From a virus (Duplodnaviria; Caudoviricetes): 64,000 bases of DNA. Below, piece by piece: positions 2,215 through 64,000 of the stretch. Made by a program: the position numbers and the translations under genes. The number at the start of each line of letters is the position of its first letter. Position 1 is the stretch's first letter. The stretch spans positions 128 to 64,127 of IMG/VR virus record IMGVR_UViG_3300034096_000868; one strand, written 5' to 3'. The notes under the pieces were generated by a model that was not told where the DNA came from, did no database searches, and saw only the letters and a program-made list of their open reading frames with translations.

Positions 2215-2241
2215 CAGTTCCATATATTTATATTTTAGACT

Positions 2242-2273
2242 AAAGCACTGCAATTTATTGTGGTGCTTTTTTT
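2242..2273 (+). terminator. intrinsic terminator
   Basis: AAAGCAC...GTGCTTT stem followed by a T tract. Confidence 0.55.
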
Positions 2274-2307
2274 ATTTTTTACTATATTCGCACTAAGTTA
2301 TAGTATA

Positions 2308-2751: not shown

Positions 2752-2962
2752 ATAAAATTAGTAGTTTTGCCAACAAACGTAAGTGATAGTGAATTAAAGA
2801 AAAAAATTATAAAGTCTTCTATAAAGGCTAAAGTCAAAAGACATTTTAATCTTTATGAATACAAATATAATTTTATCTTATCTTGCATTGAATACGTTTT
2901 GTTCTACAGATTAGAGAGAATTAGAATTAATAATATATTTAAAAACAAAAATAAGTTAAAAC

Positions 2963-3583: not shown

Positions 3584-3821
3584 CGAATTTATAGAACTAA
3601 AGACTTTCCATAGGGATGCCAACAACATCTCTAAAGAAAAGCTATCAAATATTCCACTAGACCACGTTAGAGGTGGAACGTATCGTACCTATGAAGATTC
3701 AGGAAAGCAAGTAGAAAATAAGACTATGATAATATTTGGTACTCACAAATATTATATAGCTATGAGTATAAGTGATTTAAAAACTCACCTAAGCAATAAA
3801 CTAGGGTTTAAATTTCATTAA
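3570..3821 (+). CDS. hypothetical protein
   Basis: 83-aa ORF overlapping the upstream gene. Confidence 0.55.
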   Translation: MENNNEFIELKTFHRDANNISKEKLSNIPLDHVRGGTYRTYEDSGKQVENKTMIIFGTHKYYIAMSISDLKTHLSNKLGFKFH

Positions 3822-3975
3822 AATGCCAACATACGAACATCCAAAAAAAAATCACAAAGCACCCGTTGTTAAACTAAAAGACACTGGTAGTTCTTTAATG
3901 CCTAAAAAAGCAAAGATAAACTGCGCTTGTAGTGGCACAAAAGATGCTAGAGTTAATAGACCCGGTAGATAAACT

Positions 3976-4497
3976 ATGGTAATATTTGCTAAATTCAACA
4001 AAAGTAAGAAAAAATGGGAGGTAGATGAAGATACCTGCAATTACTATGTTGAATTTAGGAATATACTAGAAAAACATGGAGCAAATGCTATTGCATTTAT
4101 AATTCTATATGCAGACCCTACAAGTCCATTTGCTTATGAGGAATCTGAATCTGTGCGTAGGGATGAAGTTTACGCATCAGTATTTGGAAAGGAAAAATTT
4201 GATGTAGAAGTCCTTAAAAATGCAATAAAAAAGTATCAACAGATTTGCGATACACAAGAAAATAAACTCCGAAAATCATACCTTAAAGGCGGTAAATTGC
4301 TAAGTAGTTATATAGATGGAGAAGCGGTTGTAAGTAGTGACAATCTAAAGGATATTATTACAATAATGAAAGAACTACCGACCGTTATCACAACTGTTGG
4401 TGAAATAAATAAAAGTGCCGATACGTCTGCTAAAGATGTTGTTGGGAAAGTCAAGTCGAATCGTAGCCTCTCATTCATAGAGGAGAAAAATAGATAA
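3976..4497 (+). CDS. putative terminase small subunit
   Basis: directly upstream of the large terminase; helical, with a FIILYADPTSPF motif; called mainly on position. Confidence 0.5.
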   Translation: MVIFAKFNKSKKKWEVDEDTCNYYVEFRNILEKHGANAIAFIILYADPTSPFAYEESESVRRDEVYASVFGKEKFDVEVLKNAIKKYQQICDTQENKLRKSYLKGGKLLSSYIDGEAVVSSDNLKDIITIMKELPTVITTVGEINKSADTSAKDVVGKVKSNRSLSFIEEKNR

Positions 4498-4503
4498 AAA
4501 GTT

Positions 4504-6330: not shown

Positions 6331-6331
6331 T

Positions 6332-9726: not shown

Positions 9727-10079
9727 GATAATTTTTTTTTGTTTTTATTAAATGATTTTAACCTTTTTTTATTTTCTTTTAAATTTTCAAATTCTCGATT
9801 GACAATATCTGTCAAATCCTCACCTATTGATAATTTATAATGTGCTATTATTTCATTTGGTTCATATCCATGCTTCAAATCTTTTCTAATTTCTCTAGAT
9901 AATAACTCATACTTTTTTTCTTTTTTTCTTATTGTATCATTTTCAGCTTCTTGTTCTTGTACTGGAGTGCGAATTTCTTGCTTTTTTTCTATAACTGGCA
10001 CTAATTCCTTAGTCGTGTCTGAAACGCTAGAAATTGACTTAAAAAACTGAATTATTAATTCAATAATTGATTGCCACAT
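9723..10079 (-). CDS. hypothetical protein (lysis-region)
   Basis: 118-aa ORF coupled to the holin gene. Confidence 0.55.
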   Translation of the reverse strand: MWQSIIELIIQFFKSISSVSDTTKELVPVIEKKQEIRTPVQEQEAENDTIRKKEKKYELLSREIRKDLKHGYEPNEIIAHYKLSIGEDLTDIVNREFENLKENKKRLKSFNKNKKKLS

Positions 10080-15911: not shown

Positions 15912-16088
15912 ATGGAAAAAGAACTTAAAGAACTTTTAAAACTCAAAGAAAACGTAGTGAGGTGGAATATGTGTGCTGAACTCGATGAAAGGCTAGGATT
16001 AGACCCAACAAAATCAAATGAAAGTGCATTGTTTTACGAAAATGAATTAAATAGTAAATTGAAAAAGATTGTTGAAGCTTATGGGTAA
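15912..16088 (+). CDS. 58-aa hypothetical protein whose stop codon forms the first TAAC of array A
   Basis: MEKELKELLKLKENVVRW...KKIVEAYG* read by hand; TAA at 16086-16088. Confidence 0.55.
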   Translation: MEKELKELLKLKENVVRWNMCAELDERLGLDPTKSNESALFYENELNSKLKKIVEAYG

Positions 16089-16159
16089 CGGTTTCGGGCT
16101 TGGCGAAGTTTGCGAAGCGTTGGCTTGTGCGGTCGGGCAAATTGCGCCAAACCCGTGTT
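16087..16159. repeat. attC-like hairpin A1
   Basis: AAC GGTTT CGGGcTTGGCG..TTTGC / GCAAA..CGCCAAaCCCG T GTT; outer arm GTTATAAGAAGTAGC pairs with GCTATTTCTTATAAC at 16468-16482. Confidence 0.85.
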
Positions 16160-16198
16160 ATAAGAAGTAGCGGTTTATTAACGATAAATTTAATTAAA

Positions 16199-16468
16199 AT
16201 GGAAATAGAAAAACAAATTGATGATTTAACCTTTGAAAGATGGAGGTTTACATTTATGTATGGAACAATATTCTTAGATGGATATTGCTTACTGCAAAAA
16301 GAAAGCAAAAGGCACAAAAATTTTAAAGTGCTGAAACAATACGATAGAATAATAGGAAGGAGTAATACAATAGTGGAAAGTGAAGTGCCTTTTACTGATG
16401 AATTAAAAGCAGAAGCATTAAATCAATTTGTTTCTACGATAAAAGTTCTTAAATGGAGCGAAAGGTAG
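16199..16468 (+). CDS. cassette A1 hypothetical protein
   Basis: ATG 16199 after an A-rich leader; the track start at 16100 lies inside the hairpin. Confidence 0.65.
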   Translation: MEIEKQIDDLTFERWRFTFMYGTIFLDGYCLLQKESKRHKNFKVLKQYDRIIGRSNTIVESEVPFTDELKAEALNQFVSTIKVLKWSER

Positions 16469-16479
16469 CTATTTCTTAT

Positions 16480-16604
16480 AACGGTAAAATAATAAAAGCA
16501 GTAGCGATATGAAAGAACAAATTGAAAATATATTGATAAAGGTTGATGAAGGCACGATGCCTGTTCAACAAGCACTAAGCGAGCTATTGCTTTTATTTAG
16601 TGTT
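16480..16604. repeat. attC-like hairpin A2
   Basis: AATAAAAGCAGTAGC / GCTATTGCTTTTATT stem; arm GTTAGCGGTTCGTTGCC vs GGCAATGACCGCTAAC (16746-16761). Confidence 0.8.
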
Positions 16605-16760
16605 AGCGGTTCGTTGCCATCTATTGACCCATTAGATGACGAGAATAGCGAAATACATAAAATAGGTAGAGAAATAGCTGAAATGTCCGATGAAGAGTTT
16701 GATAATAATTGTAAAGCAATAACAGATATGCTGTCAAGGTCGAAAGGCAATGACCGCTAA
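16509..16760 (+). CDS. cassette A2 hypothetical protein (starts in the hairpin loop)
   Basis: reads through GTTAGCGGT (VSG); stop TAA is part of the terminal TAAC. Confidence 0.6.
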   Translation: MKEQIENILIKVDEGTMPVQQALSELLLLFSVSGSLPSIDPLDDENSEIHKIGREIAEMSDEEFDNNCKAITDMLSRSKGNDR

Positions 16761-16882
16761 CGGTCAAGTGTTGCCGAAGTGGGGGATTGTTAGTACAAAA
16801 GCCCATTAAAAGCACTACTGCCGAACACAGTACAAATGTTCATTAAATGCACGTTTGCCCCCCATTTTGGCAACACTATGTT
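16759..16882. repeat. attC-like hairpin A3
   Basis: AGTGTTGCCGAAGTGGGGG / CCCCCATTTTGGCAACACT; arm GTTGGTGGTTAGTGCC vs GGCATTACCACCAAC. Confidence 0.85.
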
Positions 16883-16922
16883 GGTGGTTAGTGCCTTTGT
16901 TAAACTGATTAAATAGAAAAAA

Positions 16923-17399
16923 ATGTCAAATAGAAATTTCAGAGGTCGGGTATTTCACTACTCAAATGATTGTGGCTGGGTTTATGGCGACTTTCATAAA
17001 ATGTATGATGGTAGTTTATACCATTATATAACTACATTACCTGACTTAGACAAAGACTGGCAAACTTCATATTATAATGTAGTTGCTGATACTATTACCC
17101 AAAGTACAGGATTAAAAGACAAAGATGGTAAAGAAATATTTGAAGGTGATATTGTTAAACATAAATTTCGTAGAATATGGCAAACTAAAGAACATATTTC
17201 AACAGTTGTTTGGTGTCAAGAATATTGCTGTTATTACTTGTTTGACGGTATTTGTAACCATAGAATGAGAGATGATATGGTTTATGAAATAATTGGTAAT
17301 TTCTTTGATAATAAGGATTTGGTAAAGGGCTATCCTCCTTGTCCAAAAGTAGAGCCATCAATAACAAATAAAAACTCATCCGATGACTTGCCATTTTAG
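16923..17399 (+). CDS. cassette A3: YopX-family protein
   Basis: FRG...WVYG...QSTGLKDKDGKEIFEGDIV...YEIIGN signature. Confidence 0.85.
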   Translation: MSNRNFRGRVFHYSNDCGWVYGDFHKMYDGSLYHYITTLPDLDKDWQTSYYNVVADTITQSTGLKDKDGKEIFEGDIVKHKFRRIWQTKEHISTVVWCQEYCCYYLFDGICNHRMRDDMVYEIIGNFFDNKDLVKGYPPCPKVEPSITNKNSSDDLPF

Positions 17400-17421
17400 G
17401 GTGTCTCGTGGCATTACCACC

Positions 17422-17547
17422 AACGTTAAACGGCTTTGTGACTGTGGTGGCAATAGAATTACTACTGTTCGTTACAGCACAAATGCCAAATAGGATTACC
17501 AAAGCTGAATATCAGCACATCAGCCACCATAGCACAAAACCGATGTT
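17422..17547. repeat. attC-like hairpin A4
   Basis: CGGCTTTGTGACTGTGGTGGC / GCCACCATAGCACAAAACCG; arm GTTGGTGGCAGGTTT vs AAACTTGCCACCAAC. Confidence 0.85.
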
Positions 17548-17586
17548 GGTGGCAGGTTTTTTTCTCGGTTTACAAATTTTAAAATT

Positions 17587-18072
17587 ATGCAAGTAATAGA
17601 AGAAATAGTAAAGATTTATCAAGCCAAAGACGGCACAAAATTCAAAGACAAAGGCGAATGTCAAACCTACGAAAAAGGTATTCCGTATGGTAATTATTAT
17701 GCTAAACTTTCAAACCTTAAAACTTTTGAAGTTACTGAAAACCATTTAAAACTAATAAAAAGAAATGTTATTGAATGGGTTTTTCATAGAGACGATTATA
17801 ATGCTGGTCATTTTTACCAAGATACAAAACGACCTTATGGAAATTCTGATTGGGTTGGTGATATTGCTGAAATTTTAGGAATTGAACCCGATTGCTCAAA
17901 TCCAAATGACGAAGACGAAAAATGGTTTTCTGAAAGTTTAGAGTACTTTTTAGTTTGTCATCATATTGATATGAGAATTGTAATGGAAATACTTTGTCAA
18001 AATTTGTCAATTCACAAAGGTAAATATGAAAGAGAAAGCGTTTATTCTTCGGACTGGGTGGCGGTCGCTTAA
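17587..18072 (+). CDS. cassette A4 hypothetical protein
   Basis: 161 aa; YQAKDGTKF..K.EC..YE N-terminus and KRPYGNSD motif. Confidence 0.7.
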   Translation: MQVIEEIVKIYQAKDGTKFKDKGECQTYEKGIPYGNYYAKLSNLKTFEVTENHLKLIKRNVIEWVFHRDDYNAGHFYQDTKRPYGNSDWVGDIAEILGIEPDCSNPNDEDEKWFSESLEYFLVCHHIDMRIVMEILCQNLSIHKGKYERESVYSSDWVAVA

Positions 18073-18082
18073 ACTTGCCACC

Positions 18083-18205
18083 AACGGTTCGCAGCTATAT
18101 TTAGTTGCGGATTTAGAATCACAAATTATCAAATTAGTAATAACTTAAATAGAAAGAAAAATGTCAAAGAAACCACAGAAACCGCAATTGAATATAGCTG
18201 TTGTT
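18083..18205. repeat. attC-like hairpin A5
   Basis: CAGCTATATTTAGTTGCGG / CCGCAATTGAATATAGCTG; arm GTTAGCGGTAGTTT vs AAATTACCGCTAAC. Confidence 0.85.
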
Positions 18206-18367
18206 AGCGGTAGTTTTTATTGGGTTCGTCCGTTCCATAAAGACGAGTTTGAACCTGCTAAATGTAAAGAACTATACGGAACAGATAAGCTATATTTTTT
18301 TTTCACAAATGGAAGTCGAATGGAAGTTGAACGTGCTTGGGAAGTAGAGCCGTTAAATTACCGCTAA
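18161..18367 (+). CDS. cassette A5 hypothetical protein
   Basis: 68 aa, identical to 59758..59964; starts in the hairpin loop and stops in TAAC. Confidence 0.7.
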   Translation: MSKKPQKPQLNIAVVSGSFYWVRPFHKDEFEPAKCKELYGTDKLYFFFTNGSRMEVERAWEVEPLNYR

Positions 18368-18412
18368 CGTTTTGCGTATAAAAAATCGTTTTAATGTTTT
18401 TTATACGCTGTT
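18366..18412. repeat. attC-like hairpin A6 (shortest, 47 bp)
   Basis: AAC GTTTT GCGTATAAAAAA / TTTTTTATACGC T GTT; arm GTTAGCAGTAGTAC vs GTATTACTGCTAAC (19491-19504). Confidence 0.85.
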
Positions 18413-18507
18413 AGCAGTAGTACGGATTTAAACCGCAAATGCTCATTCGGAGAACTGAACCTTTTTATTTTCTTTTTTGAGCGAGGACAAAATATTAAAA
18501 TAAAATT

Positions 18508-19491
18508 ATGACAATAGATTTAAGATACGGAGATACAATAGAACAAATGAAATTGATACCTGATAAAAGTATTGACTTTATTTGCTGTGATTTACCTTAT
18601 GGGACAACCGCTTGTATTTGGGATATAATTATACCATTTGATAAACTTTGGAGGGAATATAAAAGGATAATCAAAGATAAAGGAGTAATTGTATTGTTTG
18701 GTAGCGAACCATTTTCATCATTATTAAGAACATCTAATTTAGAGTGGTATAAATATGATTGGATTTGGGAAAAGAATAACGCAGGGAATTTTCAATTAGT
18801 AAATTATCAACCATTAAAAATACACGAAACCATATCAGTTTTTTATAATGAAACACCTAATATGGAATTTGCTAATATTATGGTTGAAAATATGAAAAGA
18901 CTAAACTTAAAGCAAATTGATATTTCAAAATTAGAACTTTCAAGAACAGGTGGAATGACAGGTTGGGTTACAAATAAAATGAACGGTTCTCAATTACCAA
19001 CAGAACAACAATGGAGTAAAATATGTGATTTGTTTGGTATTGAAAATAAATATGACGAAATACTTTTAACTGTAAAAAAGATTACATATAACCTTGAACT
19101 TGATGATACCAAATTAGTATTATCAAATAAAGGGAAAGCTGGAACATTAGGACATCTATCAAGTGAAAGTAAAAGAGAAACATACATACAAGATAAAACA
19201 GGTTATCCAAAAAGTATATTGAAATACAATAGAGAGAATGGATTACATCCAACTCAAAAACCTATACCATTGATGGAATTTTTAATAAAGACATATTCCA
19301 ATGAAGGTGAAACTGTATTAGATAATACGATGGGTAGTTGTTCAACAGGAATTGGATGTATAAATTTGAACCGAAACTTTATTGGGATAGATAATACAAA
19401 AAAGTATTTTAATATTTCTTTAAAGAGGGTGGAAGAAAAAAGAAAAGAAAAAGATTTTAACGTAGTAACTTCATTCGGAGATGGAATGTAG
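18508..19491 (+). CDS. cassette A6: beta-class N6-adenine/N4-cytosine DNA methyltransferase with an inserted HTH-like segment
   Basis: DLPYG (motif IV), HPTQKP, VLDNTMGSCSTG (motif I). Confidence 0.9.
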   Translation: MTIDLRYGDTIEQMKLIPDKSIDFICCDLPYGTTACIWDIIIPFDKLWREYKRIIKDKGVIVLFGSEPFSSLLRTSNLEWYKYDWIWEKNNAGNFQLVNYQPLKIHETISVFYNETPNMEFANIMVENMKRLNLKQIDISKLELSRTGGMTGWVTNKMNGSQLPTEQQWSKICDLFGIENKYDEILLTVKKITYNLELDDTKLVLSNKGKAGTLGHLSSESKRETYIQDKTGYPKSILKYNRENGLHPTQKPIPLMEFLIKTYSNEGETVLDNTMGSCSTGIGCINLNRNFIGIDNTKKYFNISLKRVEEKRKEKDFNVVTSFGDGM

Positions 19492-19532
19492 TATTACTGC
19501 TAACTTCTTTATTTACGCAACAAAAACACAAG

Positions 19533-45577: not shown

Positions 45578-48451
45578 TTAATCAAAATTTATTTTCAAAT
45601 TTCTGATTATTTTTTCCAAACAAGCTACTACTATTGAGTTGCCACCTTGACGATACAACTGCGAATCAGATAAACTATTCTTAGGATTGGCCTCATTGTA
45701 TTTTTTCACATTATCCATAAAACTTTCCTCGAAGTCCATCAAACGGAATACTTCGGTTGGGGTTAATCGGCGTATTCTTTTGTTCTGATTTGTAGCTAAT
45801 CCACTTCTATCGCTTCTTAAAGCAGGAGAATATTTATCATAAACCCTTGTTTCTTCTCCAAAACTATTAGTTAAATCTAAAATAACAGGCTCTTGTGTTC
45901 CACCTTGAATAAAGTTTTGCTCAACTGCAATCTTAGGCTCTTGATTCCCACCACCCATAGTATGAATTGTTGGTGCAACACCATTTTTATCATAAACTCT
46001 ACCACTTTGCTCATGTGTTTTATCCCACTTGCCACCCGTTAGTTGATATTCTACTATCGGATTAGGTTCAGAACTAACCATAACTAAGTTATCTTTTTGA
46101 ACAGTTGTAATTGCATTGCTAGTGCTACTCTCATTTGGTTCAATATTCTGCTCAATAACTCCATCCTCATTATATCTGCCTCGCATAGCAACTATTGTAG
46201 GTTCGTCAAGTAATATATTTTTACTTCTAGCATCCGTATCTAAAGTAGTCATTACTCCATTTACATCATAAACCCTATTATGCTGAAATGGTTGTTTGCC
46301 TCCACTCTCTTTACTAGGATTTAATTGTCTTACTTCTGGAGTGTTATCTTCAATCACACCACTCTCCACATATCCATTGGCATAACCATGTGTTCTTGCA
46401 CACATATTTGGACTTACTCCATTATCTGAATAAACTTGACTTGCTTGTGTATCTTGATTGATAAATCCTACTTTGAGAATATTATCAGTAGGACATAAAG
46501 CTGCGTTAGCTCTTATTGTTACTGCTATTGAGTTTTCATCTTTATAATCTACTGCAAATCCTGTTCCTTTTTTATTATGCCTATCAGCATGACTTGTTAG
46601 CATATTTAACATACTATCACTCAAAAAATACTTTTCATCTACAATAGGTTCTAAAACATCTTTTAATCTTAGTTTTAAAACTTCTTTTATAGGGAATCTG
46701 AAACTATTATCTGCATCATCACGAATACCAACAATAAATATCCTTTCTCTATTTTGTGGCACTCCATGTTCTTTTGCATTTAGCACCTGGAAATAGATAT
46801 GATATGGCACACTATCCTCATAAGGAATAAAAGTTGCATTGCCATTAATTGATTTACCCCCTAGATAATTAATCCATTCGGAAAAAGTCTTACCATACTT
46901 AGCTTTTTTATCCGTTTTGTCATGTGAAAGCAAACCTTTGACATTTTCAAAAATGAAGTATTTGGGTTTATTTTCACGTATGAAGTCTAGTGAACTGAAA
47001 AACAAGACACCTCGTTTGTCATCTTTACCCTTTCTTTTACCAGCCAAAGAAAATGATTGGCAGTTATGTACTATTGCTTGATTAGCGGTATAAGAATGAT
47101 CGTTTTCAACCGTTATATCATAAACTTCTTCAACTTCTTCGGTTTGTTTAATGTATTTTATTGGATACCATATTTTATCGTCAATAACGACAGCGTTAGA
47201 TTGCTTACGCATTTCTTTTCTAAATTCTAATACATAATAATCTCTTTGATTAACTACTCTGCCTTGTATTATTGTTGTGTTTGGAGTTTTAACTATTCTT
47301 AAATTAGAATTTACATTGTGTATTTTAGCAATACAAAGTTGCAAACCCATCAATAATTCTTTACTAATAGAAGTTGCTCTAAATGCATCCTTATGAATAT
47401 GTCCATCTCCATCCATATATCCATTAACGAAATGTTTTAATATGTCAATAGGTAGGTTTATAATAGATTGAGGTATCCTTTTATTTATTGCTCCTTTACC
47501 TAAACCTATTTCTTTTATAAGATTTACTAATCCGTTTGAAAATATAAATAATTTGCGAACTCCATTTATTTCTTTACTAATATGATGTTTTACTTTTATT
47601 TTGGTAGATATTTCATCAACTTTATCTTTTCCTATTGCTAACATGACAGCGTCTCCTTTTGATTTGCCTTTATATTTCGACTCTCTTAACCATCCGTCAG
47701 CGACATATCTGCCTAATATGTAAGCTATTTCTTCTGTTATGCTATATTTATTTTCAATTAATTGAGGTATATTAATGCCAATAAAATGATTCTTAGTTAG
47801 ATTTTTAGCTTCTATCCATTTAGGTTCACTAAATACTCTTATTTGTGTTCTATTTTTATATACATAAGACTTTTCTCTAACATAATATTTATGATTCTCT
47901 GTGGTTTTAGTTTCTAATATTCCTTGAGCTTTTACATTTAATATTTTAGAGTATTTACTTCCTTTCGCTATTACCTTTTCGTACTTATTATTGTGAGTTA
48001 ATACCATATCTCCAATATTAATATCTTTAATTTGAACAAATCCTTCGCTTGTGTTTATTAAAGTATCTCCAGAAAAGCAAGGTACAGAGGACATATACAA
48101 GTCGATTGGATCTACCGGAACTTCTCTTTCATACATATTAAAAGGAAAATAGAATGAGAAAGTTTTAGCAAACTCATTGGCATCTACTAATATTTGCTTA
48201 TCTTCATCACATACTTCAATACTAGCATCCATTAGTGCAATCCTTTTTACTTCATCACAAAAGAACTTATGTTTTTTAGATTGTGCAATCTGAACATCTT
48301 TATCTGTTCCATATTGAATACAATAGTTTAGCCTAGCATAGTAATCAAAATCACACGCAAAACTTTCCTCATAGTCAATACCTAATCTTTTAACTGCTTG
48401 AATTAGAGAACCTACTCCACAGCAGTCCGAACCAACTTTAATTTTAGCCAT
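45578..48451 (-). CDS. C5-cytosine DNA methyltransferase containing an intein
   Basis: P-[intein]-CQSFS..GK (motif IV), FENVKGL (VI), PQNRERIF (VIII), RRLTP.E..RLM, YRQGGNSIVV (X). Confidence 0.9.
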   Translation of the reverse strand: MAKIKVGSDCCGVGSLIQAVKRLGIDYEESFACDFDYYARLNYCIQYGTDKDVQIAQSKKHKFFCDEVKRIALMDASIEVCDEDKQILVDANEFAKTFSFYFPFNMYEREVPVDPIDLYMSSVPCFSGDTLINTSEGFVQIKDINIGDMVLTHNNKYEKVIAKGSKYSKILNVKAQGILETKTTENHKYYVREKSYVYKNRTQIRVFSEPKWIEAKNLTKNHFIGINIPQLIENKYSITEEIAYILGRYVADGWLRESKYKGKSKGDAVMLAIGKDKVDEISTKIKVKHHISKEINGVRKLFIFSNGLVNLIKEIGLGKGAINKRIPQSIINLPIDILKHFVNGYMDGDGHIHKDAFRATSISKELLMGLQLCIAKIHNVNSNLRIVKTPNTTIIQGRVVNQRDYYVLEFRKEMRKQSNAVVIDDKIWYPIKYIKQTEEVEEVYDITVENDHSYTANQAIVHNCQSFSLAGKRKGKDDKRGVLFFSSLDFIRENKPKYFIFENVKGLLSHDKTDKKAKYGKTFSEWINYLGGKSINGNATFIPYEDSVPYHIYFQVLNAKEHGVPQNRERIFIVGIRDDADNSFRFPIKEVLKLRLKDVLEPIVDEKYFLSDSMLNMLTSHADRHNKKGTGFAVDYKDENSIAVTIRANAALCPTDNILKVGFINQDTQASQVYSDNGVSPNMCARTHGYANGYVESGVIEDNTPEVRQLNPSKESGGKQPFQHNRVYDVNGVMTTLDTDARSKNILLDEPTIVAMRGRYNEDGVIEQNIEPNESSTSNAITTVQKDNLVMVSSEPNPIVEYQLTGGKWDKTHEQSGRVYDKNGVAPTIHTMGGGNQEPKIAVEQNFIQGGTQEPVILDLTNSFGEETRVYDKYSPALRSDRSGLATNQNKRIRRLTPTEVFRLMDFEESFMDNVKKYNEANPKNSLSDSQLYRQGGNSIVVACLEKIIRNLKINFD
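47063..48079 (-). mobile_element. intein (339 aa) with a LAGLIDADG homing endonuclease
   Basis: starts CFSGDTLI, block B TTENHKY, LGRYVADG and FVNGYMDGDG motifs, ends VYDITVENDHSY...VHN, followed by Cys+1. Confidence 0.92.
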
Positions 48452-56880: not shown

Positions 56881-56997
56881 AACGTCCGAGTGCTTGGCGA
56901 AGTTGCCGAACACAAAAGTTAAACTGAAAAACAAAAGTTGAAATTATGGATAAAGTTGAATTGAAAGACGAAACGGCAATTTTGCCAAACCCGTGTT
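56881..56997. repeat. attC-like hairpin B1
   Basis: TTGGCGAAGTTGCCG / CGGCAATTTTGCCAA; arm GTTATGTGCTGGGC vs GCCTTGCACATAAC. Confidence 0.8.
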
Positions 56998-57569
56998 ATG
57001 TGCTGGGCGGTTTAAAGAAGTATTCTGTTATTTACGCTGACCCTGCTTGGAGTTACGATTTTAAAGAGCCTACTGCATCCAAAGGTGGGGCGAAAGGAAG
57101 TGGTTATTCAGCAGGTGTTAATTACTACTATGGAACAATGACAACTAAACAGATACTTGAATTGCCTGTAAAAAACATTTGCGAAAAGGATTGTGTGCTT
57201 TTTCTATGGGCGACTAATCCGCTTTTACCCGAAGCCTTAGAAACGATGAAGGCTTGGGGGTTCAAATACAAAACGATGATTACTTGGCACAAAGAACGAT
57301 GCAAAGGAATGGGATATTGGTTTCGTGGGCATACCGAACATATTTTAGTAGGGGTAAAAGGGAATGTAAAAGCGTTTCGTTCTTTGGAACACAATATAAA
57401 AAAGTTGCCCGTAGAAAAGCATAGCAAAAAGCCTGATGAATTTAGGCAAATGATTGAAGCAGTTACAGGCAATTTAGGAAATAGAATAGAATTGTTTGCA
57501 AGGAATAACCACGAGGGATGGGATGCTTGGGGAAATGAAGTAGGTTCGTCTGTCGAAGTAGGATGGTAG
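56946..57569 (+). CDS. cassette B1: MT-A70-family N6-adenine methyltransferase
   Basis: YSVIYADPAW, LFLWAT, WGFKYKT..W.K, G.GYWFRG.TEH, HSKKP, IELFAR, GWDAWGNE. Confidence 0.9.
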   Translation: MDKVELKDETAILPNPCYVLGGLKKYSVIYADPAWSYDFKEPTASKGGAKGSGYSAGVNYYYGTMTTKQILELPVKNICEKDCVLFLWATNPLLPEALETMKAWGFKYKTMITWHKERCKGMGYWFRGHTEHILVGVKGNVKAFRSLEHNIKKLPVEKHSKKPDEFRQMIEAVTGNLGNRIELFARNNHEGWDAWGNEVGSSVEVGW

Positions 57570-57579
57570 CCTTGCACAT

Positions 57580-57702
57580 AACGGTCTAGGGCTTGACGCA
57601 GGTAGGAATAGAAAGCATAATTGCTTGTTTACTTACCAATGCTGAAAAGAGTGCTAAAGCCGAATAAAGCACCAAAGCCCTACTTGCGTTCAAACCCTTG
57701 TT
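57580..57702. repeat. attC-like hairpin B2
   Basis: AGGGCTTGACGCAGGTAGG / CCTACTTGCGTTCAAACCCT; arm GTTATATGCCGTTTT vs AAAATGGCATATAAC. Confidence 0.85.
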
Positions 57703-57751
57703 ATATGCCGTTTTTATCGGCTCAAATTTTTAACTTTTAAATAATAAATAT

Positions 57752-58087
57752 ATGTCTAAAATAACACAAGAAGATTATACAAAAGCACTTGAAACTATTA
57801 AAAAATTTCAATGTCAATGCTCAAAATGCGGAACACAATTTGGTGATAGGTGGGAATGGAATGCAAATTCATTCAAACTACAATTAAATATAGATTGCCA
57901 AAGTACAGACGCTTTATTTGGCGAAAAAGCAAATGAAATAGGGTTTAATCATCCTGCAATAGAAAAAGGTGCAGGGTATCAAAGATTAACGATTTCAAGC
58001 GGTAGAGAATTGCCTTATAGACTTTGTCCATCTTGTCATAGAAAGTTTTTTCGTCTTATAGGGGACTTTCTGCAAAATGGCATATAA
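57752..58087 (+). CDS. cassette B2: Zn-finger-like protein
   Basis: CSKCG ... LCPSCH; stop codon in TAAC. Confidence 0.7.
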   Translation: MSKITQEDYTKALETIKKFQCQCSKCGTQFGDRWEWNANSFKLQLNIDCQSTDALFGEKANEIGFNHPAIEKGAGYQRLTISSGRELPYRLCPSCHRKFFRLIGDFLQNGI

Positions 58088-58176
58088 CGTGATGCGGCTT
58101 TGTGTCTGTTTGCCCCTTGCTCAAAGTTTCAAGTTATCACAAATGTTGATGGGGCAAATAGCACAAAACCGCTGTT
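58086..58176. repeat. attC-like hairpin B3
   Basis: GCGGCTTTGTGTCTGTTTGCCCC / GGGGCAAATAGCACAAAACCGC; arm GTTATAGGCAGTAGGG. Confidence 0.85.
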
Positions 58177-58227
58177 ATAGGCAGTAGGGATTTTTAGCAG
58201 AATGTTTAATTTAAAAACAAATAAAAA

Positions 58228-58665
58228 ATGAACAACTTAAAAACAAAAGAAGATAGACAAGAAGCTATCAAACAAATTGAAAAAAGTTTTTTAACTACAA
58301 TCAAAAGTAATGGGCTTGAACTTTCAGAAGAAGCTGTTTGCAGAATAAACCAAAATAGTATTGAACTTGGTATTTGTGCAATAGGAAAGTATGCTGAAAA
58401 AGGTTATCAAATGGCTTTTGCATCGGCTATTGAATTGTATGCAAAAAGCTATGATGATGAACTTGGATTTGGAAGAAAAGAAAACGAAATAAACTTTGGT
58501 AGTTCTGGTTCTTTTAATCCATCTGAACGAGAAAGTTATTGGAGAACTATACACGCTGCATCTGTATTGAAAAATTGGGATATTGTTTCAGAAATTGTAA
58601 ATACCCATTGCAAAATGTATTGTGATTTGAGCAAGAAAATCTTTGAGGTAAATGTTCAATCGTAG
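58228..58665 (+). CDS. cassette B3 hypothetical protein
   Basis: 145-aa ORF filling the cassette. Confidence 0.7.
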   Translation: MNNLKTKEDRQEAIKQIEKSFLTTIKSNGLELSEEAVCRINQNSIELGICAIGKYAEKGYQMAFASAIELYAKSYDDELGFGRKENEINFGSSGSFNPSERESYWRTIHAASVLKNWDIVSEIVNTHCKMYCDLSKKIFEVNVQS

Positions 58666-58683
58666 CACGTCTGCCCTATTGCC

Positions 58684-58805
58684 TACGTTGAGCATATACG
58701 AAGGCAGGGCTTTGAAACTCAAATGCTCGTTTACTTCCGAAAGTTTAATCAACATATAAAAGCTGAAAGTTTGCACTTCTGCCCTGCTTTTGTATATGTA
58801 TTGTT
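58684..58805. repeat. attC-like hairpin B4 (junction AAC damaged)
   Basis: CATATACGAAGGCAGGGC / GCCCTGCTTTTGTATATG; arm GTTGGCAGTAGTGCT vs AGCATTACTGCCAAC. Confidence 0.8.
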
Positions 58806-58846
58806 GGCAGTAGTGCTTTTTGTCAAACTAGAATAAATTTAAGAAT

Positions 58847-59137
58847 ATGGAATTATGTAATTTTTCAAAGGCTTGGGTTGGTAATTGTAAAAATGAAAAA
58901 CCTTGCAAAGAACACGCTGAAATTAAATGCGGTTCTTGTGGTGAGCCTGCCACAAGAGAATGTGCTGAAACTGGTCAATTTGTTTGCGGTGTTCCTCTGT
59001 GTGATAATTGTGAGCATACTATCTACGAAGATGGTACAAATGGAGGTATTGGTTTTAATCAACAACGACCACACGAAGGAATGAAGTCACATTGTAAAAA
59101 GTCAGAACAAAAATTTAAAAGCTGGTATGAGCGGTAG
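58847..59137 (+). CDS. cassette B4: Cys-rich Zn-binding protein
   Basis: multiple CxxC / CxxH motifs in 96 aa. Confidence 0.7.
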   Translation: MELCNFSKAWVGNCKNEKPCKEHAEIKCGSCGEPATRECAETGQFVCGVPLCDNCEHTIYEDGTNGGIGFNQQRPHEGMKSHCKKSEQKFKSWYER

Positions 59138-59156
59138 TGTCGGTAGCATTACTGCC

Positions 59157-59237
59157 AACGTTTTGCAGATTGGCGAAGTTGCAAAATTGCGTTGGATTTG
59201 TGCGGTGGGATTTTGCAATTTTTGCCAATGTGCTGTT
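59157..59237. repeat. attC-like hairpin B5
   Basis: GCAgATTGGCGAAGTTGCAAAAT / ATTTTGCAATTTTTGCCAATgTGC; arm GTTATCAGCAGTTCT vs AGAATTGCTGATAAC. Confidence 0.85.
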
Positions 59238-59276
59238 ATCAGCAGTTCTTTTTTCACACTTAAATAATTATCAAAA

Positions 59277-59678
59277 ATGAATACATTAAAATTAACACTA
59301 AAAAAACAATGGTTTGACCTTATCAAAGAAGGTATCAAAACCGAAGAGTACAGAGAAATAAAGCCTTATTGGTTTGAAAGATTAGTTTTTCAATATGAAA
59401 AGGCTTTTAAATATTGCACTGGATATGATTACAAGCAACAACTTTATGTAAACGAAGGAATACAACATACTCTTTCTGAAAGTAAAAAATCAATGGTTGC
59501 AATGAAACCTTTTGACTTTGTAGAATTTACAAATGGATATAATTCTACAAGCCCAAAAATCACTTTAGAGTGTCAAAATATTATAATTGGGCAAGGATTA
59601 GAAGAATGGGGAGCAGTCAAGGGCGAAAGATATTTTATAATCAAACTCGGTCGTGAGGTTGGTCGGCAGAATTGCTGA
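59277..59678 (+). CDS. cassette B5: ASCH/PUA-like domain protein
   Basis: L.L.LKKQWFDLI..G.KTEEYRE.KPYW..RL ... F.NGY ... YF.I.LG. Confidence 0.8.
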   Translation: MNTLKLTLKKQWFDLIKEGIKTEEYREIKPYWFERLVFQYEKAFKYCTGYDYKQQLYVNEGIQHTLSESKKSMVAMKPFDFVEFTNGYNSTSPKITLECQNIIIGQGLEEWGAVKGERYFIIKLGREVGRQNC

Positions 59679-59679
59679 T

Positions 59680-59970
59680 AACGGTTCGCAGCTATATTTA
59701 GTTGCGGATTTAGAATCACAAATTATCAAATTAGTAATAACTTAAATAGAAAGAAAAATGTCAAAGAAACCACAGAAACCGCAATTGAATATAGCTGTTG
59801 TTAGCGGTAGTTTTTATTGGGTTCGTCCGTTCCATAAAGACGAGTTTGAACCTGCTAAATGTAAAGAACTATACGGAACAGATAAGCTATATTTTTTTTT
59901 CACAAATGGAAGTCGAATGGAAGTTGAACGTGCTTGGGAAGTAGAGCCGTTAAATTACCGCTAACGTTTT
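59680..59970 (+). repeat. exact dispersed repeat, copy 2 (cassette B6 = A5, including its hairpin 59680-59802)
   Basis: identical by eye to 18083..18373. Confidence 0.95.
59758..59964 (+). CDS. cassette B6 hypothetical protein
   Basis: identical 68-aa translation to 18161..18367. Confidence 0.7.
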   Translation: MSKKPQKPQLNIAVVSGSFYWVRPFHKDEFEPAKCKELYGTDKLYFFFTNGSRMEVERAWEVEPLNYR

Positions 59971-60084
59971 CGGGCTTTGCGTAGTAGGGGATTAAATGCA
60001 CTACGCTTGGTCTTAGCACAAATGTTTATTAGAAGCAGATAGTTTGGTTTAGCACTATCGCCCCTATTACGCAAAGCCCGTGTT
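59963..60084. repeat. attC-like hairpin B7
   Basis: CGGGCTTTGCGTAGTAGGGG / CCCCTATTACGCAAAGCCCG; arm GTTATATGAAGGTGGG vs CCCACTTTCATATAAC. Confidence 0.9.
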
Positions 60085-60180
60085 ATATGAAGGTGGGATT
60101 TTCACGCACTACACTTAAATAGAAGCACGTAAAAAGAAAAAGAAAAAATGAGCGTGGGAAACAATTTAATTTAAACAAAA

Positions 60181-60726
60181 ATGGGAACAAGAAATTTAAC
60201 AATGGTTATTAACCAAGAAGGAGAAAAGAAAGTAGCACAATACGGACAATGGGATGGTTATCCATCTGGAGTTGGGGTAGGTGTTCTTAAATTCCTTAAA
60301 GACAAAGAGGTGTTTGAAAAATTCAAAGTCAACTTATCTAAAGTGAGATTTTTAGATGAAGAAGGTGTTGATAAGGAATTTATTGAAAGCTACAATAAAA
60401 ATGCTCCACAATGGAGCAATGAACCAGACAACAGAACCGAAGAACAAAAACGTTGGTTTTCTACTTATTGCAATCGTGATTTAGCAGAAGAAGTTTTAAC
60501 CAATATCGCCAACTCTACTGACAAAGAAATTGTTTTAATGGATAGAGAAAACACCGCAAAAGGTGATGGATGGGTAGAATATTCGTATGTTATAAACTTG
60601 AAAGAAAATACGCTTGGCGTTTATGGACACATTGACCAAGAGCCAATGAAAGTTTACAAACTTGATGAACTACCTGAAGAAGATGTTTTCGTTTCTGAAT
60701 TGGAAGGAGTTGAAGAAGAAGATTAA
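60181..60726 (+). CDS. cassette B7 hypothetical protein
   Basis: MGTR......QY.QWDGYP.G.G ... EY.YVI.L motif pattern seen in phage hypothetical proteins. Confidence 0.75.
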   Translation: MGTRNLTMVINQEGEKKVAQYGQWDGYPSGVGVGVLKFLKDKEVFEKFKVNLSKVRFLDEEGVDKEFIESYNKNAPQWSNEPDNRTEEQKRWFSTYCNRDLAEEVLTNIANSTDKEIVLMDRENTAKGDGWVEYSYVINLKENTLGVYGHIDQEPMKVYKLDELPEEDVFVSELEGVEEED

Positions 60727-60800
60727 AAAGAGCGTGGGCGGATTTTTTCTTTTTCTTTCTCACGAAAGTTCAATCGAAGCACGTCTGCCCACTTTCATAT

Positions 60801-61033
60801 AACGGCATTGGGCTAAACGCAGTAGGGGTTTCCTACCTGTAAAGATGGAATGGCAGACAATTCAAGTTTAACTTTGTTCTTGATTGTTTGGACGACATCC
60901 CCCTATTGCGTTTTAACCCATGTTATAAGTCTGGTGGCGGGGCGTAGTGATTAAGGTAACAATAAGGGCAGAGTAAACTGCACAAACCCTAAATTAAATC
61001 CACTACCATTAATGCCCGCCACTTGCTTATAAC
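60801..61033 (+). other. cassette B8: ORF-less cassette with hairpin 60801-60924
   Basis: TGGGCTAAACGCAGTAGGGG / CCCCTATTGCGTTTTAACCCA; arm GTTATAAGTCTGGTGGCGGG vs CCCGCCACTTGCTTATAAC; no ATG-initiated + strand ORF over about 25 codons seen. Confidence 0.75.
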
Positions 61034-61116
61034 GGTTGGGTGTATGAGAAGGTTTGCTTGTAGAAACTTTCAAATTACAACTGAACTTAATAGCAAACTT
61101 TCTTATACACTTTGTT
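61031..61116. repeat. attC-like hairpin B9
   Basis: GTGTATGAGAAGGTTTGCT / AGCAAACTTTCTTATACAC; arm GTTATGTGTTGTTTT vs AAAATGACACATAAC. Confidence 0.85.
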
Positions 61117-61143
61117 ATGTGTTGTTTTTAAATTAAATAAAAT

Positions 61144-61371
61144 ATGGAAACAGGAAATTTAATTAAATCAACCAATTTCAACACAACACCATATTGGGTT
61201 GTAAAATGTGATAATTCAAATTTAATTGGTAATAGAAATGGTGAATTACCAATAGACCCTTTGAGTTTTAATTTTCATCCTTGGTCTATCTTAGAAAACA
61301 GAACGGTTAAATTTGAATTGGTTGAAATTGGTAGTGATGATAGATTGAAATGGTATGCTCGTCTAAAATGA
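61144..61371 (+). CDS. cassette B9 hypothetical protein
   Basis: 75-aa ORF whose stop lies in the terminal arm. Confidence 0.65.
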   Translation: METGNLIKSTNFNTTPYWVVKCDNSNLIGNRNGELPIDPLSFNFHPWSILENRTVKFELVEIGSDDRLKWYARLK

Positions 61372-61376
61372 CACAT

Positions 61377-61452
61377 AACGTTTTGCAGATAAGCGAAGGC
61401 ACAAATAGCGTTGGCTTTAGCGAGGAATTTGGGCTTTTGCTTATGTGCTGTT
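61377..61452. repeat. attC-like hairpin B10
   Basis: GCAgATAAGCGAAGGC.CAAAT / ATTTG.GCTTTTGCTTATgTGC; arm GTTAGCAGTAGGTTT vs AAACTTACTGCTAAC. Confidence 0.85.
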
Positions 61453-61497
61453 AGCAGTAGGTTTTTTAACTAATTATAAATTTAAAATAAATACAAA

Positions 61498-61731
61498 ATG
61501 GAAAATCAAGAAGTATTAAAATTCACTTGGAAAAAAGGAATTAAAGAAGTAAAACCTGCACACCCAATGGTTCAAAATTGGATGTTTACAGAAGAAACAG
61601 AAGAACAAGCAAGTTTAGCACATTATATGGCTGTTGTTGCTGAAAAGAATGGATTAACGGCAAATGATTTGCAACACTTATTCCCTGCTGTCCTTCGGAT
61701 GTTGAAAGATAGTTCAGCGTGGTCTAAGTAA
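61498..61731 (+). CDS. cassette B10 hypothetical protein
   Basis: 77-aa ORF filling the cassette. Confidence 0.65.
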   Translation: MENQEVLKFTWKKGIKEVKPAHPMVQNWMFTEETEEQASLAHYMAVVAEKNGLTANDLQHLFPAVLRMLKDSSAWSK

Positions 61732-61741
61732 ACTTACTGCT

Positions 61742-61795
61742 AACGTGTATATGTATTCAATACTCACAATTTATTAATAATCAAAAATATATATT
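61742..61795. other. candidate attI-like primary insertion site
   Basis: last AAC of array B, not followed by a hairpin, 51 bp before the integrase ATG. Confidence 0.55.
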
Positions 61796-62629
61796 ATGGA
61801 TTTTCTAAAGTATCAAAATAAATTTAGAATTGATTTAGATTTAAAATATTCTAATTCTTTGCAAACTAGAAATAATTATTTTTCTTGTGTTGTTAATTTT
61901 TTACAACATTTTAAAAATGAAAAAGAGCCTAAATCAATAAGTACTGATTCTATTAAATTATATTTGCTTTCTTTTAAAACTATAAATACTCGTAGAGCAA
62001 ACTTATGTGCAATAAAAGCATTTTACAAGCTAACTGTGAATATGCCTAATAAAATAGATAGAGTTCCTTTTCCTCAAAAAGAAAGAAGATTACCTATTAT
62101 TATAGATCAAATTGATGTACAGAAAATGTTTGATGTGTGTTCCAACTTGAAACACAAGTGTGTAATGGCAGTTCTCTATGGTACTGGAGTGAGAATATCC
62201 GAATTAATAGGCATTAAATTAAGTGATATTAGAAGAAATGAAAAGACTATTAGAATAATAGGCAAGGGGAATAAAGAAAGATTTGTGCCACTAAATGATA
62301 GCCTACTTCAATTAATAACAAATTATTGGAGAGAATATAAAACTAAAATATGGTTGTTTGAAAATGATTTATCACATACTCAATATAGCAAAAGAAGTGT
62401 TGGTTTGTTTTTAAAATCATTTAAAGAAAAAGCAAACATAAAAAGTCCAGTAAGTCCTCATAAATTCAGACACTCACACGCTACTGCATTATTAGAGCAA
62501 GGAACAGATTTAAGAATCATACAAAAGGAACTTGGACATAACTCAATAAAAACAACCCAATTATATACTCATGTATCTACAAATATTATAAGTAAAATAA
62601 ACTCACCATTAAACAATATAAACATATAA
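61796..62629 (+). CDS. tyrosine recombinase, integron-integrase-like
   Basis: catalytic R (YGTGVRISE), K (GKGNKER), HxxR (HKFRH), H (LGH), Y (TTQLYTHV); the YTHV....SPL ending resembles IntI. Confidence 0.92.
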   Translation: MDFLKYQNKFRIDLDLKYSNSLQTRNNYFSCVVNFLQHFKNEKEPKSISTDSIKLYLLSFKTINTRRANLCAIKAFYKLTVNMPNKIDRVPFPQKERRLPIIIDQIDVQKMFDVCSNLKHKCVMAVLYGTGVRISELIGIKLSDIRRNEKTIRIIGKGNKERFVPLNDSLLQLITNYWREYKTKIWLFENDLSHTQYSKRSVGLFLKSFKEKANIKSPVSPHKFRHSHATALLEQGTDLRIIQKELGHNSIKTTQLYTHVSTNIISKINSPLNNINI

Positions 62630-63000: not shown

Positions 63001-63669
63001 ATGCAATATCAAAGCAAAATAAACAATATCTTAGCTGATGTTATAAGAGGAACTAGAAACGAAATACAATACACAATTACAGATGCTAATTATGATATTC
63101 ACAATATATTTAATGGTAAAGTAACCCCAGAAATACTAGAAAAAACAAGCACTATTGATTATTTAATCAATGAATCTTGTTCAGTATTTGGCATACAAGA
63201 TAGAGAAGAAATATTTAGTCCATCTAGGAAAAGAGCTAGGGTATTAGCTAGACAAACTTGTATGTATTTGCTAGACAAATATAGAGCTGGAACTTTAGAG
63301 CAAATAGGTAGAATGTTTGGAGGTCGAGACCATTCAACAGTTATTCATAGCAAAAATGCAATTCAAAATATAATTGATGTTGAAGATGCTTTTTATGATA
63401 AGGTTGCATTAGTAGAAGAGAGACTTGTTGAATACATGAACTCGTCTAATAAGGCAATAAATGTAACAGAATTAACGCCACCAAAACCACCTTTTAACAT
63501 ACATTTGCTTGTTGAAAAAATAAATCAAATTAGACATAAGCAATTATTTTCAGTAGACCCTGAATTAATAAAATCTAGTAAAATTGAAAAAGGTACGTGT
63601 GATATAATTTTGTCTTTAATAAAAGAAATAAGTAATGAACAAGAGGCAACTATACTATCAAGCAAATAA
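63001..63669 (+). CDS. protein with a DnaA C-terminal (domain IV) HTH
   Basis: SRKR..V.ARQ..MYL......TL..IG..FGGRDHSTV.HS; no AAA+ domain. Confidence 0.85.
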   Translation: MQYQSKINNILADVIRGTRNEIQYTITDANYDIHNIFNGKVTPEILEKTSTIDYLINESCSVFGIQDREEIFSPSRKRARVLARQTCMYLLDKYRAGTLEQIGRMFGGRDHSTVIHSKNAIQNIIDVEDAFYDKVALVEERLVEYMNSSNKAINVTELTPPKPPFNIHLLVEKINQIRHKQLFSVDPELIKSSKIEKGTCDIILSLIKEISNEQEATILSSK

Positions 63670-63898
63670 AGAACGAATAAAAGCAAAGCAAAGGGAATGG
63701 AGAGCTAAAAATCCAGACTTGGTATATGCAAGTAAAGTTCATTTTAGAGCAAAATATCAAAAAGAATTACATGATGTTTACATTAAGGAAGTGCTAGTGA
63801 ATAGAAAAGGATACAAACGCTCTGAAATAACTCCAGAACTTATCGAAATTCAAAGAAATATTATAAAACTAAGTAGATATGTTAAACGAACTAAATAA
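63635..63898 (+). CDS. basic hypothetical protein
   Basis: YYQANKERI...REW..KNP and L.D.YI..L.......I.PELIE..R patterns. Confidence 0.6.
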   Translation: MNKRQLYYQANKERIKAKQREWRAKNPDLVYASKVHFRAKYQKELHDVYIKEVLVNRKGYKRSEITPELIEIQRNIIKLSRYVKRTK

Positions 63899-64000
63899 AG
63901 CCTTATTAGGGCAAATAAAGAAAATTGAATCTGAAAAGAATTTAGATACAGAGGTGTTAAAATCAAAAGAAATTTGTAGATTGAGCAATCAAGTTATAAA

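Follow-up and report, generated by a model that had tools for sequence, protein, structure and literature searches.

Can a tailed phage carry an integron-like gene-cassette system, and which enzyme would move the cassettes? The question is raised by a 64,000-nucleotide (nt) stretch of the IMG/VR virus record IMGVR_UViG_3300034096_000868 (Duplodnaviria; Caudoviricetes; positions 128 to 64,127 of the record), hereafter the window, in which a tandem array of hairpin-and-gene units, array B, ends shortly before a tyrosine recombinase gene. Integrons provide the textbook example of how a tyrosine recombinase can work on single-stranded DNA in folded form, an ability attributed to an insertion unique to the integron integrase IntI; in the phage, a shorter, Xer-like enzyme goes together with sites of the same logic and with the same traces of cassette exchange. 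A preliminary description of the locus proposed a platform for gene capture and shuffling, and five independent comparisons support this proposal. In our reading, to which we give a probability of about 0.7, this tailed phage carries an integron-like platform of gene cassettes, with the neighboring Xer-like recombinase as the most likely catalyst.

Architecture of the cassette arrays

Array B consists of ten tandem units, and its terminal AAC lies 51 base pairs (bp) before a complete recombinase gene, just as the preliminary description had it. The features of the region are as follows (arms, matching positions of the two cassette ends; z, fold score against shuffled sequence).

56881–61744, + strand: array B, ten cassettes, bounded by the first AAC, which is the fixed border with the backbone, and by the terminal AAC; homology to the sister contig L015 is interrupted between 56884 and 61740
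56884–57582, + strand: cassette B1, short hairpin (56884–56917) and MT-A70 DNA methyltransferase gene (56946–57569; PF05063, E = 1.2e-30; PHROG 359, DNA methyltransferase); arms 4/13, z +0.52
57583–58088, + strand: cassette B2, 117-nt hairpin and Cys-rich open reading frame (ORF) of 111 amino acids (aa) (57752–58087); arms 11/13, z −2.1
58089–58686, + strand: cassette B3, hairpin and 145-aa ORF (58228–58665); ends in TAC, not AAC, with a 3-nt loss
58687–59159, + strand: cassette B4, hairpin and 96-aa Cys-rich ORF (58847–59137); arms 11/13, z −3.4
59160–59682, + strand: cassette B5, hairpin and 133-aa ORF (59277–59678), weakly ASCH-like (PF04266, E = 0.009, below the cutoff; PHROG 625, of unknown function, E = 1.5e-20); arms 11/13
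59683–59965, + strand: cassette B6, hairpin with the start codon of a 68-aa ORF (59758–59964) inside its loop; exact second copy of cassette A5
59966–60803, + strand: cassette B7, hairpin and 181-aa ORF (60181–60726), long nested terminal inverted repeats; arms 12/13
60804–61033, + strand: cassette B8, hairpin and 110-bp body, no ORF of at least 40 aa on the + strand
61034–61379, + strand: cassette B9, hairpin and 75-aa ORF (61144–61371); arms 10/13, z −3.0
61380–61744, + strand: cassette B10 (recombinase proximal), hairpin and 77-aa ORF (61498–61731); arms 11/13
61742–61795, + strand: attI-like junction, terminal AAC without hairpin partner, then GTG-TATATGTA and a leader rich in A+T
61796–62629, + strand: Xer-like tyrosine recombinase, 277 aa (PF00589, E = 9e-41; PF13495, SAM_4)

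A unit is built of AAC, a G that opens an imperfect hairpin closed by (T)GTT, an arm, usually one gene, a complementary arm (arm'), and the next AAC. The ten hairpin sites, about 35 to 120 nt in size, lie between 56881 and 61452 on the + strand. The preliminary description gave every unit a single gene, complementary arms, and a closing AAC; this stands for most of them, the exceptions being B8, which has no ORF, B1, whose arms are not complementary, and the junction at 58684, which reads TAC. When the arm after GTT is compared with the arm before the next AAC of the same cassette, 4, 11, 3, 11, 11, 10, 12, 7, 10, and 11 of 13 positions match in B1 to B10, respectively. At least 10 of 13 match in seven of the ten cassettes, whereas the 90 other arm pairs average 5.1 matches and reach at most 9, and the observed sum was reached by none of 200,000 permutations. 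Two of the three low scores reflect indels, namely, 3 nt lost at 58684, where AAC became TAC, and an offset of 1 nt in B8, which has no ORF; in B1, the arms are truly noncomplementary. Chance inverted repeats are ruled out by this comparison and the permutation test. Elements of the MITE (miniature inverted-repeat transposable element) or IS200/IS605 type were also considered and rejected, as an HUH transposase is lacking and consecutive cassettes are linked directly through a single trinucleotide that they share. In B7, the inverted repeats include a perfect pair of 17 nt at 60133/60742.

As single-stranded DNA of the + strand, nine of the ten sites fold better than dinucleotide-shuffled sequences (z −1.8 to −4.9), and the + (coding) strand is more stable than the − strand in nine of ten. 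One geometry is common to the folds: pairing of AAC(G) with (T)GTT, then 3 to 5 nt left unpaired on the 5' side only, then a long bulged stem. In architecture, the paired AAC/GTT boxes, unpaired features, and strand polarity are those of an attC-type hairpin. Among 2,270 AAC...GTT-closed candidates on the + strand of the window, the 26 most stable all lie in array B or in a second array, array A. The 5 nt that follow AAC differ among the 11 junctions of array B. In two places, 59758 and 16509, the start codon of the next gene sits inside the hairpin loop.

Array A accounts for six of the 16 sites counted in the preliminary description, and it lies outside the region 56881–62629 given there.

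16087–19504, + strand: array A, six cassettes, same build as array B, no adjacent recombinase
16923–17399, + strand: YopX gene of array A
18086–18368, + strand: cassette A5, identical to cassette B6
18508–19491, + strand: N6_N4 methyltransferase gene of array A

With six attC-type sites and no integrase next to them, array A fits the definition of a CALIN (cluster of attC sites lacking integron integrases). Together, the two arrays cover 8,282 of 64,000 bp (13% of the window). By their family matches (MT-A70 methyltransferase, PF05063, E = 1e-30; N6_N4 methyltransferase, PF01555; YopX, PF09643), the cargo is one of phage accessory genes: two DNA methyltransferases, YopX, and small proteins of unknown function. 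The methyltransferases and YopX had been named in the preliminary description; the ASCH domain it added stays below threshold, and what it called "Zn fingers" are ORFs rich in Cys that match no family, the 111-aa ORF of B2 being without a family over the cutoff in family-profile and PHROG searches. The two cassette DNA methyltransferases plausibly protect against restriction.

All cassette-assigned ORFs, nine in array B and six in array A, are on the + strand and point to the attI-like site and the recombinase; their leaders are only about 30 to 50 nt, so the cassette genes are probably cotranscribed toward the recombinase. A run of 5 to 7 T stands shortly after most GTT-arms (approximately at 57715, 58190, 58817, 59250, 59815, 61125, and 61465). 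Hairpin and T-run resemble an intrinsic terminator on the coding strand; the A-rich stretch before arm'-AAC complements the T-run, which suggests that the run may simply belong to an extended terminal inverted repeat. A cassette gene may have its stop codon within arm' (TAA in ATATAAC at 58085–58087 and at other cassette ends), and the coding sequence then reaches right up to the recombination core.

Cassette exchange at the AAC borders

Where do cassettes join? Within the window, A5 (18086–18368) and B6 (59683–59965) are 100% identical over 283 bp in unrelated flanks, and the identity starts at the AAC preceding the cassette and ends 5 nt past the closing AAC. The IMG/VR sister contig L015 has a recombinase 100% identical to that of the window and flanks of 94 to 99% identity; homology is lost at 56884 and regained at 61740, that is, at the first and last AAC, and between these, L015 carries a wholly different, shorter array of the same build. 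The Polaribacter phages Danklef_1 and Danklef_3 have flanks of 100% identity and one difference of 778 to 781 bp, a block made of a hairpin, GTT-arm, MT-A70 gene, and arm'-TAAC, with the joint within TAAC. Freya_1 and Freya_10, with flanks likewise 100% identical, differ by a 4,942-bp block of 12 genes inserted at ...AAC/ACCCC (the slash marks the joint), 50 bp before the integrase start, and Freya_6 and Freya_10 carry different cassettes between CCAAC/ and AAC/ACCCC. The joint partners in the Danklef and Freya comparisons share just 3 to 4 nt. Every joint lies at the AAC on the 5' side of a hairpin and none on the GTT side, so a hairpin travels with its downstream gene and not with the upstream one. 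The aligned sequences of these five comparisons show that cassettes are gained, lost, and duplicated as units cut at AAC; cassette content is variable with borders at the core site, as in an integron. AAC-bounded variable cassettes beside homologous recombinases were what the preliminary description had predicted, and they were found in the five comparisons and in a survey of 80 viral loci.

Metagenome assemblies were not counted as evidence of excision or of circular cassettes. The assembled contigs of runs X2, X3, X5, and X6 are fragmented, several pieces start, stop, or diverge into unlike sequence at cassette borders (57585, 59680, 59965/59969, and 61376), and one contig of 317 nt equals cassette B6; of the eight contig joints, none has a known intervening sequence, and seven have a short side below 30 nt.

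The same joints bear on how the strands are exchanged. A conventional double-stranded Xer/dif reaction of the pdif kind would treat arm'-AAC-spacer-stem as a duplex core and leave the symmetry of the hairpin incidental or serving another purpose. An Xer-like enzyme with no I2 insertion, the additional domain of IntI, would suit such a reaction, and modules flanked by inverted sites are reminiscent of pdif modules. Two-strand exchange, however, normally requires an identical overlap of 6 to 8 bp, and a duplex core with two binding arms and such an overlap is not what the 11 junctions present: only AAC or TAAC is shared at the joints, and the 5 nt after AAC differ between sites. Moreover, the five joints are all on the AAC side and none is on the GTT side, and hairpin pairing is kept despite sequence divergence, with a G·T bias toward one strand in 140 of the 147 units of the survey, where the coding strand folds better. 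We consider a duplex exchange quite improbable; the 3 to 4 shared nt, the differing 5 nt after AAC, and the kept pairing with its one-strand bias point instead to single-strand exchange of the integron type.

Could the hairpins mainly be RNA elements, such as terminators, processing sites, or stabilizers, with the genes swapped by homologous recombination between hairpin modules? The better folding of the coding strand and the T-runs would agree with this, as would hairpin-plus-leader modules that are 72 to 96% identical between phages and have different ORFs. Against it, joints are found at 3 to 4 nt of identity despite longer stretches on offer: the hairpins flanking the Danklef difference share an identical 3' end of 18 nt (read by eye) that was not used as a joint, which argues against homologous recombination, as this would have used the 18-nt stretch. 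The two arms around a gene complement one another, which a circular intermediate explains and RNA punctuation does not, and the terminal half-site adjoins the recombinase. The chance that RNA function and homologous recombination account for the arrays appears very slim; an additional RNA role of the hairpins could coexist with recombination.

Further observations concern what a site can carry. Hairpin and leader are 76 to 92% identical between different phages (58077–58228, 56892–57003, and 61023–61156; loci L045, L048, L051, L052, and L088), and the hairpin of B3 is 83 to 91% identical to hairpins of Flavobacterium phage lillamy9-1 and of loci L045 and L048; the similarity of hairpin and leader ends near the gene start codon, so sites and ORFs may be exchanged separately. 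Whole small genes lie inside a hairpin loop (AAC...GTT) in L015 (8300–8560) and in Freya_6 (L009; 480–880), the GTT...AAC segment being empty or holding another gene, which indicates that cargo can be housed in either kind of segment. One cassette body of L015, 29 nt long, consists of arms only. In the loop of the first hairpin of L015 (8165–8260), there are two GGTTCGA(N)TCC motifs resembling tRNA T-arms; ARAGORN found no tRNA or tmRNA in this loop.

The recombinase and its linkage to the arrays

The 277-aa recombinase (61796–62629) is the only PF00589 match in the record. It was classed by hidden Markov model scores, one PDB alignment, and one fold search. The best NCBIfam match is XerA_Arch (194.5 bits against a cutoff of 220), with XerD and XerC also among the best curated families; the integron integrase model TIGR02249 gives 156.9 bits (cutoff, 265), matched in two stretches. 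Alignment to the Vibrio integron integrase VchIntIA (2a3v) likewise falls into two pieces, whose query parts overlap at 208–225; about 34 residues of the chain (approximately 219 to 252) are unmatched, and the C-terminal SPL motif aligns. Neither the TIGR02249 score nor the 2a3v alignment points to the IntI-specific I2 helix. R133, K157, H222, R225, H248, and Y257, the catalytic residues, are invariant across 22 homologues. A structural model (mean predicted local distance difference test score, 85) has XerA (5hxy) and then 2a3v as top Foldseek matches. By these profile and fold comparisons, the recombinase is Xer-like and is without the insertion that defines integron integrases. The Freya integrase is 28% identical to it and ranks the same families in the same order.

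What lies between array and enzyme? The eleventh AAC of array B (61742–61744) has no hairpin and stands 51 bp upstream of the recombinase ATG at 61796. An AAC-NNN-TATATGTA box is conserved at the equivalent place in related loci, and the TATATG found after the terminal AAC also opens many hairpin stems. The 51-bp position, the conserved box, and the Freya insertions at the equivalent point suggest that this junction may act as attI does, as the primary site beside the integrase gene. In Danklef_1 (L002), a 79-bp stretch occurs twice with 96% identity (8148–8226 and 9952–10029), running from AAC/GTGCGATTG... through the first codons ATGCAAGAT; one copy is in the array before a small gene and the other is before the N-terminally truncated recombinase. 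This duplication looks like the footprint of an aberrant event at the attI-like site.

The linkage between arrays and recombinase was surveyed in the best 80 IMG/VR loci (recombinase identity, 41 to 100%), units being counted on the recombinase strand and defined as AAC/GTT-closed hairpins of −9 kcal/mol or lower with arms matching in at least 10 of 12 positions. A total of 145 units lie upstream of the recombinase and 2 lie downstream (419,683 and 579,268 bp searched, respectively). Upstream sequence exceeds 2 kb in 57 loci; of these, 47 contain one or more units and 37 contain two or more. A distance of 51 to 53 bp separates the terminal AAC from the start codon in 21 of the 54 loci having an upstream unit; G follows AAC in 129 of the 147 units, and T precedes GTT in 127. 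In the control, 80 loci of more distant bacterial homologues yielded 9 upstream and 3 downstream units. These counts show the arrays, as the survey defines them, to be tightly linked to this recombinase clade.

The clade itself is large. Among 2,700 candidates, 1,936 are relatives of the recombinase at an E value of 1e-20 or lower, the best 120 of which are 272 to 318 aa long, and the viral collection holds 443 relatives. Homologues of at least 45% identity were found only in viral contigs; the best match in a species-representative bacterial genome has 44% identity and is on a contig of a metagenome-assembled genome.

Several observations weigh against the platform-plus-recombinase reading. 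The scan that combines constrained folding with the arm-complementarity rule is a heuristic made for this analysis; on the + strand of the window, it finds no unit outside arrays A and B and recovers about 10 of the 16 units within them. Some surveyed loci are near duplicates (L018 is the same contig as L015; L070/L071, L081/L082, and L084 to L086 look alike), so the counts overstate independence. The first site of array B (56881–56920) folds no better than shuffled sequences (z +0.52), and the arms of B1 match in 4 of 13 positions. The G·T bias toward the coding strand fits an RNA function of the hairpins equally well, and T-runs follow most GTT-arms, as in terminators. The integron literature (PMC7790495) holds the I2 insertion, absent here, responsible for single-strand recombination in integrons. 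Finally, some arrays have no recombinase at hand. Array A is 42 kb from the sole recombinase gene, Flavobacterium phage lillamy9-1 (at least eight chained units) and Polaribacter phage P12002L (the same site type) have no PF00589 match, and the Danklef recombinase is N-terminally truncated (a 173-aa open frame with TGA), yet the Danklef isolates differ by a cassette.

The observations on arrays with no recombinase at hand are also what would be expected if cassettes are mobile at AAC and the recombinase is only a lysogeny integrase, the mover being a host or coinfecting recombinase or a canonical IntI. According to the excerpted text of PMC9892861, a P12002L site can serve as a substrate for IntI1, and the isolators of Freya and Danklef took the gene as a marker of a temperate lifestyle (excerpted text of PMC8776804). 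On the other side stand the 145 upstream units against 2 downstream in this clade, the fixed spacing of 51 to 53 bp, the conserved box directly after the terminal AAC, and the Freya insertions exactly at the terminal AAC; homologues of at least 45% identity were found only in viral contigs. No canonical IntI exceeded the cutoff of the integron integrase model in 201 genomes of the family of G001, with 14 control genomes also at 0 and no positive control. We regard a mover other than the recombinase as unlikely. That the recombinase is the catalyst, and "dedicated" to the array, is inferred from linkage, fixed spacing, and the conserved junction box.

How would the phage recombinase, as the candidate catalyst, move a cassette? 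The substrate would be folded single-stranded DNA, of which one strand is exchanged. In a circular cassette, arm'-AAC and GTT-arm could pair below the hairpin, giving one long bulged stem-loop in the manner of the R and L boxes of attC. Strand exchange would take place at or within the AAC 5' of the hairpin on the better-folding + (coding) strand, a geometry that would match the recombined bottom strand of attC, and replication would resolve the single-strand product. The attI-like site (AAC-GTG-TATATGTA), which has no hairpin and stands 51 bp before the recombinase gene, would be the entry point of new cassettes, and cassettes may also move between arrays and between phages. If the 277-aa recombinase is the enzyme, the recombinase-less arrays (array A, lillamy9-1, and P12002L) imply that it acts in trans as well. 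A broader claim has, in our estimate, an even chance of being right: that a large clade of phage Xer-like recombinases without I2 runs true integron-type single-strand chemistry on accessory-gene arrays, as a second lineage outside IntI, independent or ancestral, and serves a general trade in accessory and antidefense genes among Bacteroidota phages, in cis and in trans.

Relation to known systems and genome context

Is this an integron? Like bacterial integrons, the phage locus has arrays of mostly single-gene cassettes, imperfect hairpins closed by AAC...GTT with an unpaired spacer, complementary cassette ends, a crossover at the 5' AAC of the strand that folds better, a primary site that has no hairpin and adjoins a tyrosine recombinase gene oriented away from the array, and cassette content that varies between close relatives. 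Unlike them, it is carried by phages with phage accessory cargo, and its recombinase is a 277-aa Xer-like enzyme without the IntI-specific insertion. The arm complementarity is longer (about 10 to 15 nt), the asymmetric loop of 3 to 5 nt is on the 5' side only, and genes or gene starts may sit in the hairpin loop. The cassette genes lie on the folding strand and face the recombinase with its attI-like site. On the − strand, the order of the elements matches a classical integron (recombinase pointing away, primary site, hairpin-ended cassettes), but the genes are inverted: integron cassette genes run away from attI, with a promoter (Pc) at the integrase end, and the ORFs have this orientation in neither array. 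The locus is not an integron in the strict sense, as it lacks the integrase feature that defines one and its genes are oriented differently.

Two Xer-dependent systems offer further parallels. The pdif modules of Acinetobacter plasmids are gene modules between inversely oriented 28-bp duplex dif-like sites and depend on the host XerCD; they share with the phage arrays discrete gene modules, inversely oriented flanking sites, and an Xer-type recombinase. The phage sites differ in being hairpins of 40 to 125 nt, with joints sharing 3 to 4 nt and a recombinase encoded by the element. In CTX-phi, XerCD integrates a folded single-stranded attP by single-strand exchange with no I2 insertion. As an Xer-family enzyme without I2 acting on a hairpin of folded single-stranded DNA, it shows that such chemistry is possible for Xer-like enzymes; the difference is that a whole phage genome enters a host dif site, and there is no cassette array.

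The preliminary description knew of no equivalent in tailed phages, which was too strong. In a screen of 10,705 phage genomes by integron tools, Qi et al. (2023) reported 17 integrase-less attC clusters, among them that of Polaribacter phage P12002L with two methyltransferases, of which one attC-like site was recombined into attI1 by IntI1, on the bottom strand only (excerpted text of PMC9892861). We read the P12002L sites as being of the same type as those of the window, with the build AAC/G...GTATATG...GTT in common; the phage shares a cassette with Danklef (76% identity), and array A and the lillamy9-1 array fit the CALIN description. In its excerpted text, PMC9892861 treats these clusters as stray integron parts usable by a bacterial IntI, names no phage recombinase or attI-like site for them, and compares no isolates. 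In the isolation paper of Freya and Danklef, the integrase is taken to indicate a temperate lifestyle, and the excerpted text of that paper does not use the words cassette, integron, or hairpin (PMC8776804). A link of attC-like phage arrays to a phage-encoded Xer-like recombinase was not found in the full-text literature, subscription journals and supplements lying outside the search.

Standard integron surveys keyed to IntI miss such platforms. If the enzyme is confirmed, the system bears directly on the origin of integrons and supplies a defined mechanism for the fast turnover of early-region accessory genes, for example, methyltransferases, a turnover that includes differences between isolates from one host in one season. 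The question would then be testable in the cultured Polaribacter phages Freya and Danklef and in the Flavobacterium lillamy group.

The record, a viral contig of 64,127 bases, has genes for the terminase large subunit, the portal, and virion proteins, and DNA similarity relates it to phages of Flavobacterium, Polaribacter, and Cellulophaga. Lake-water metagenomes contain the stretch, with at least half of its sampled words present in 4 of the 24 listed runs. The + strand carries every gene of the array B region, and the G+C content of the array is 35 to 41%, compared with 25 to 32% in the flanks. The completeness of the record was estimated at 61%. The sister contig L015 (12142–20831) joins positions 63630–64000 of the window to positions 3–7237, with about 1.1 kb between them, so the genome may be near complete at about 65 kb or circularly permuted. 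Outside both arrays, a third methyltransferase is encoded at 45578–48451 (− strand), a protein of 957 aa whose C-terminal half matches DNA methyltransferase PHROGs and whose N-terminal half matches nuclease- or reductase-like PHROGs. Two genes downstream of the recombinase, the product of 63001–63669 contains the C-terminal helix-turn-helix domain of DnaA (PF08299, E = 1e-19).

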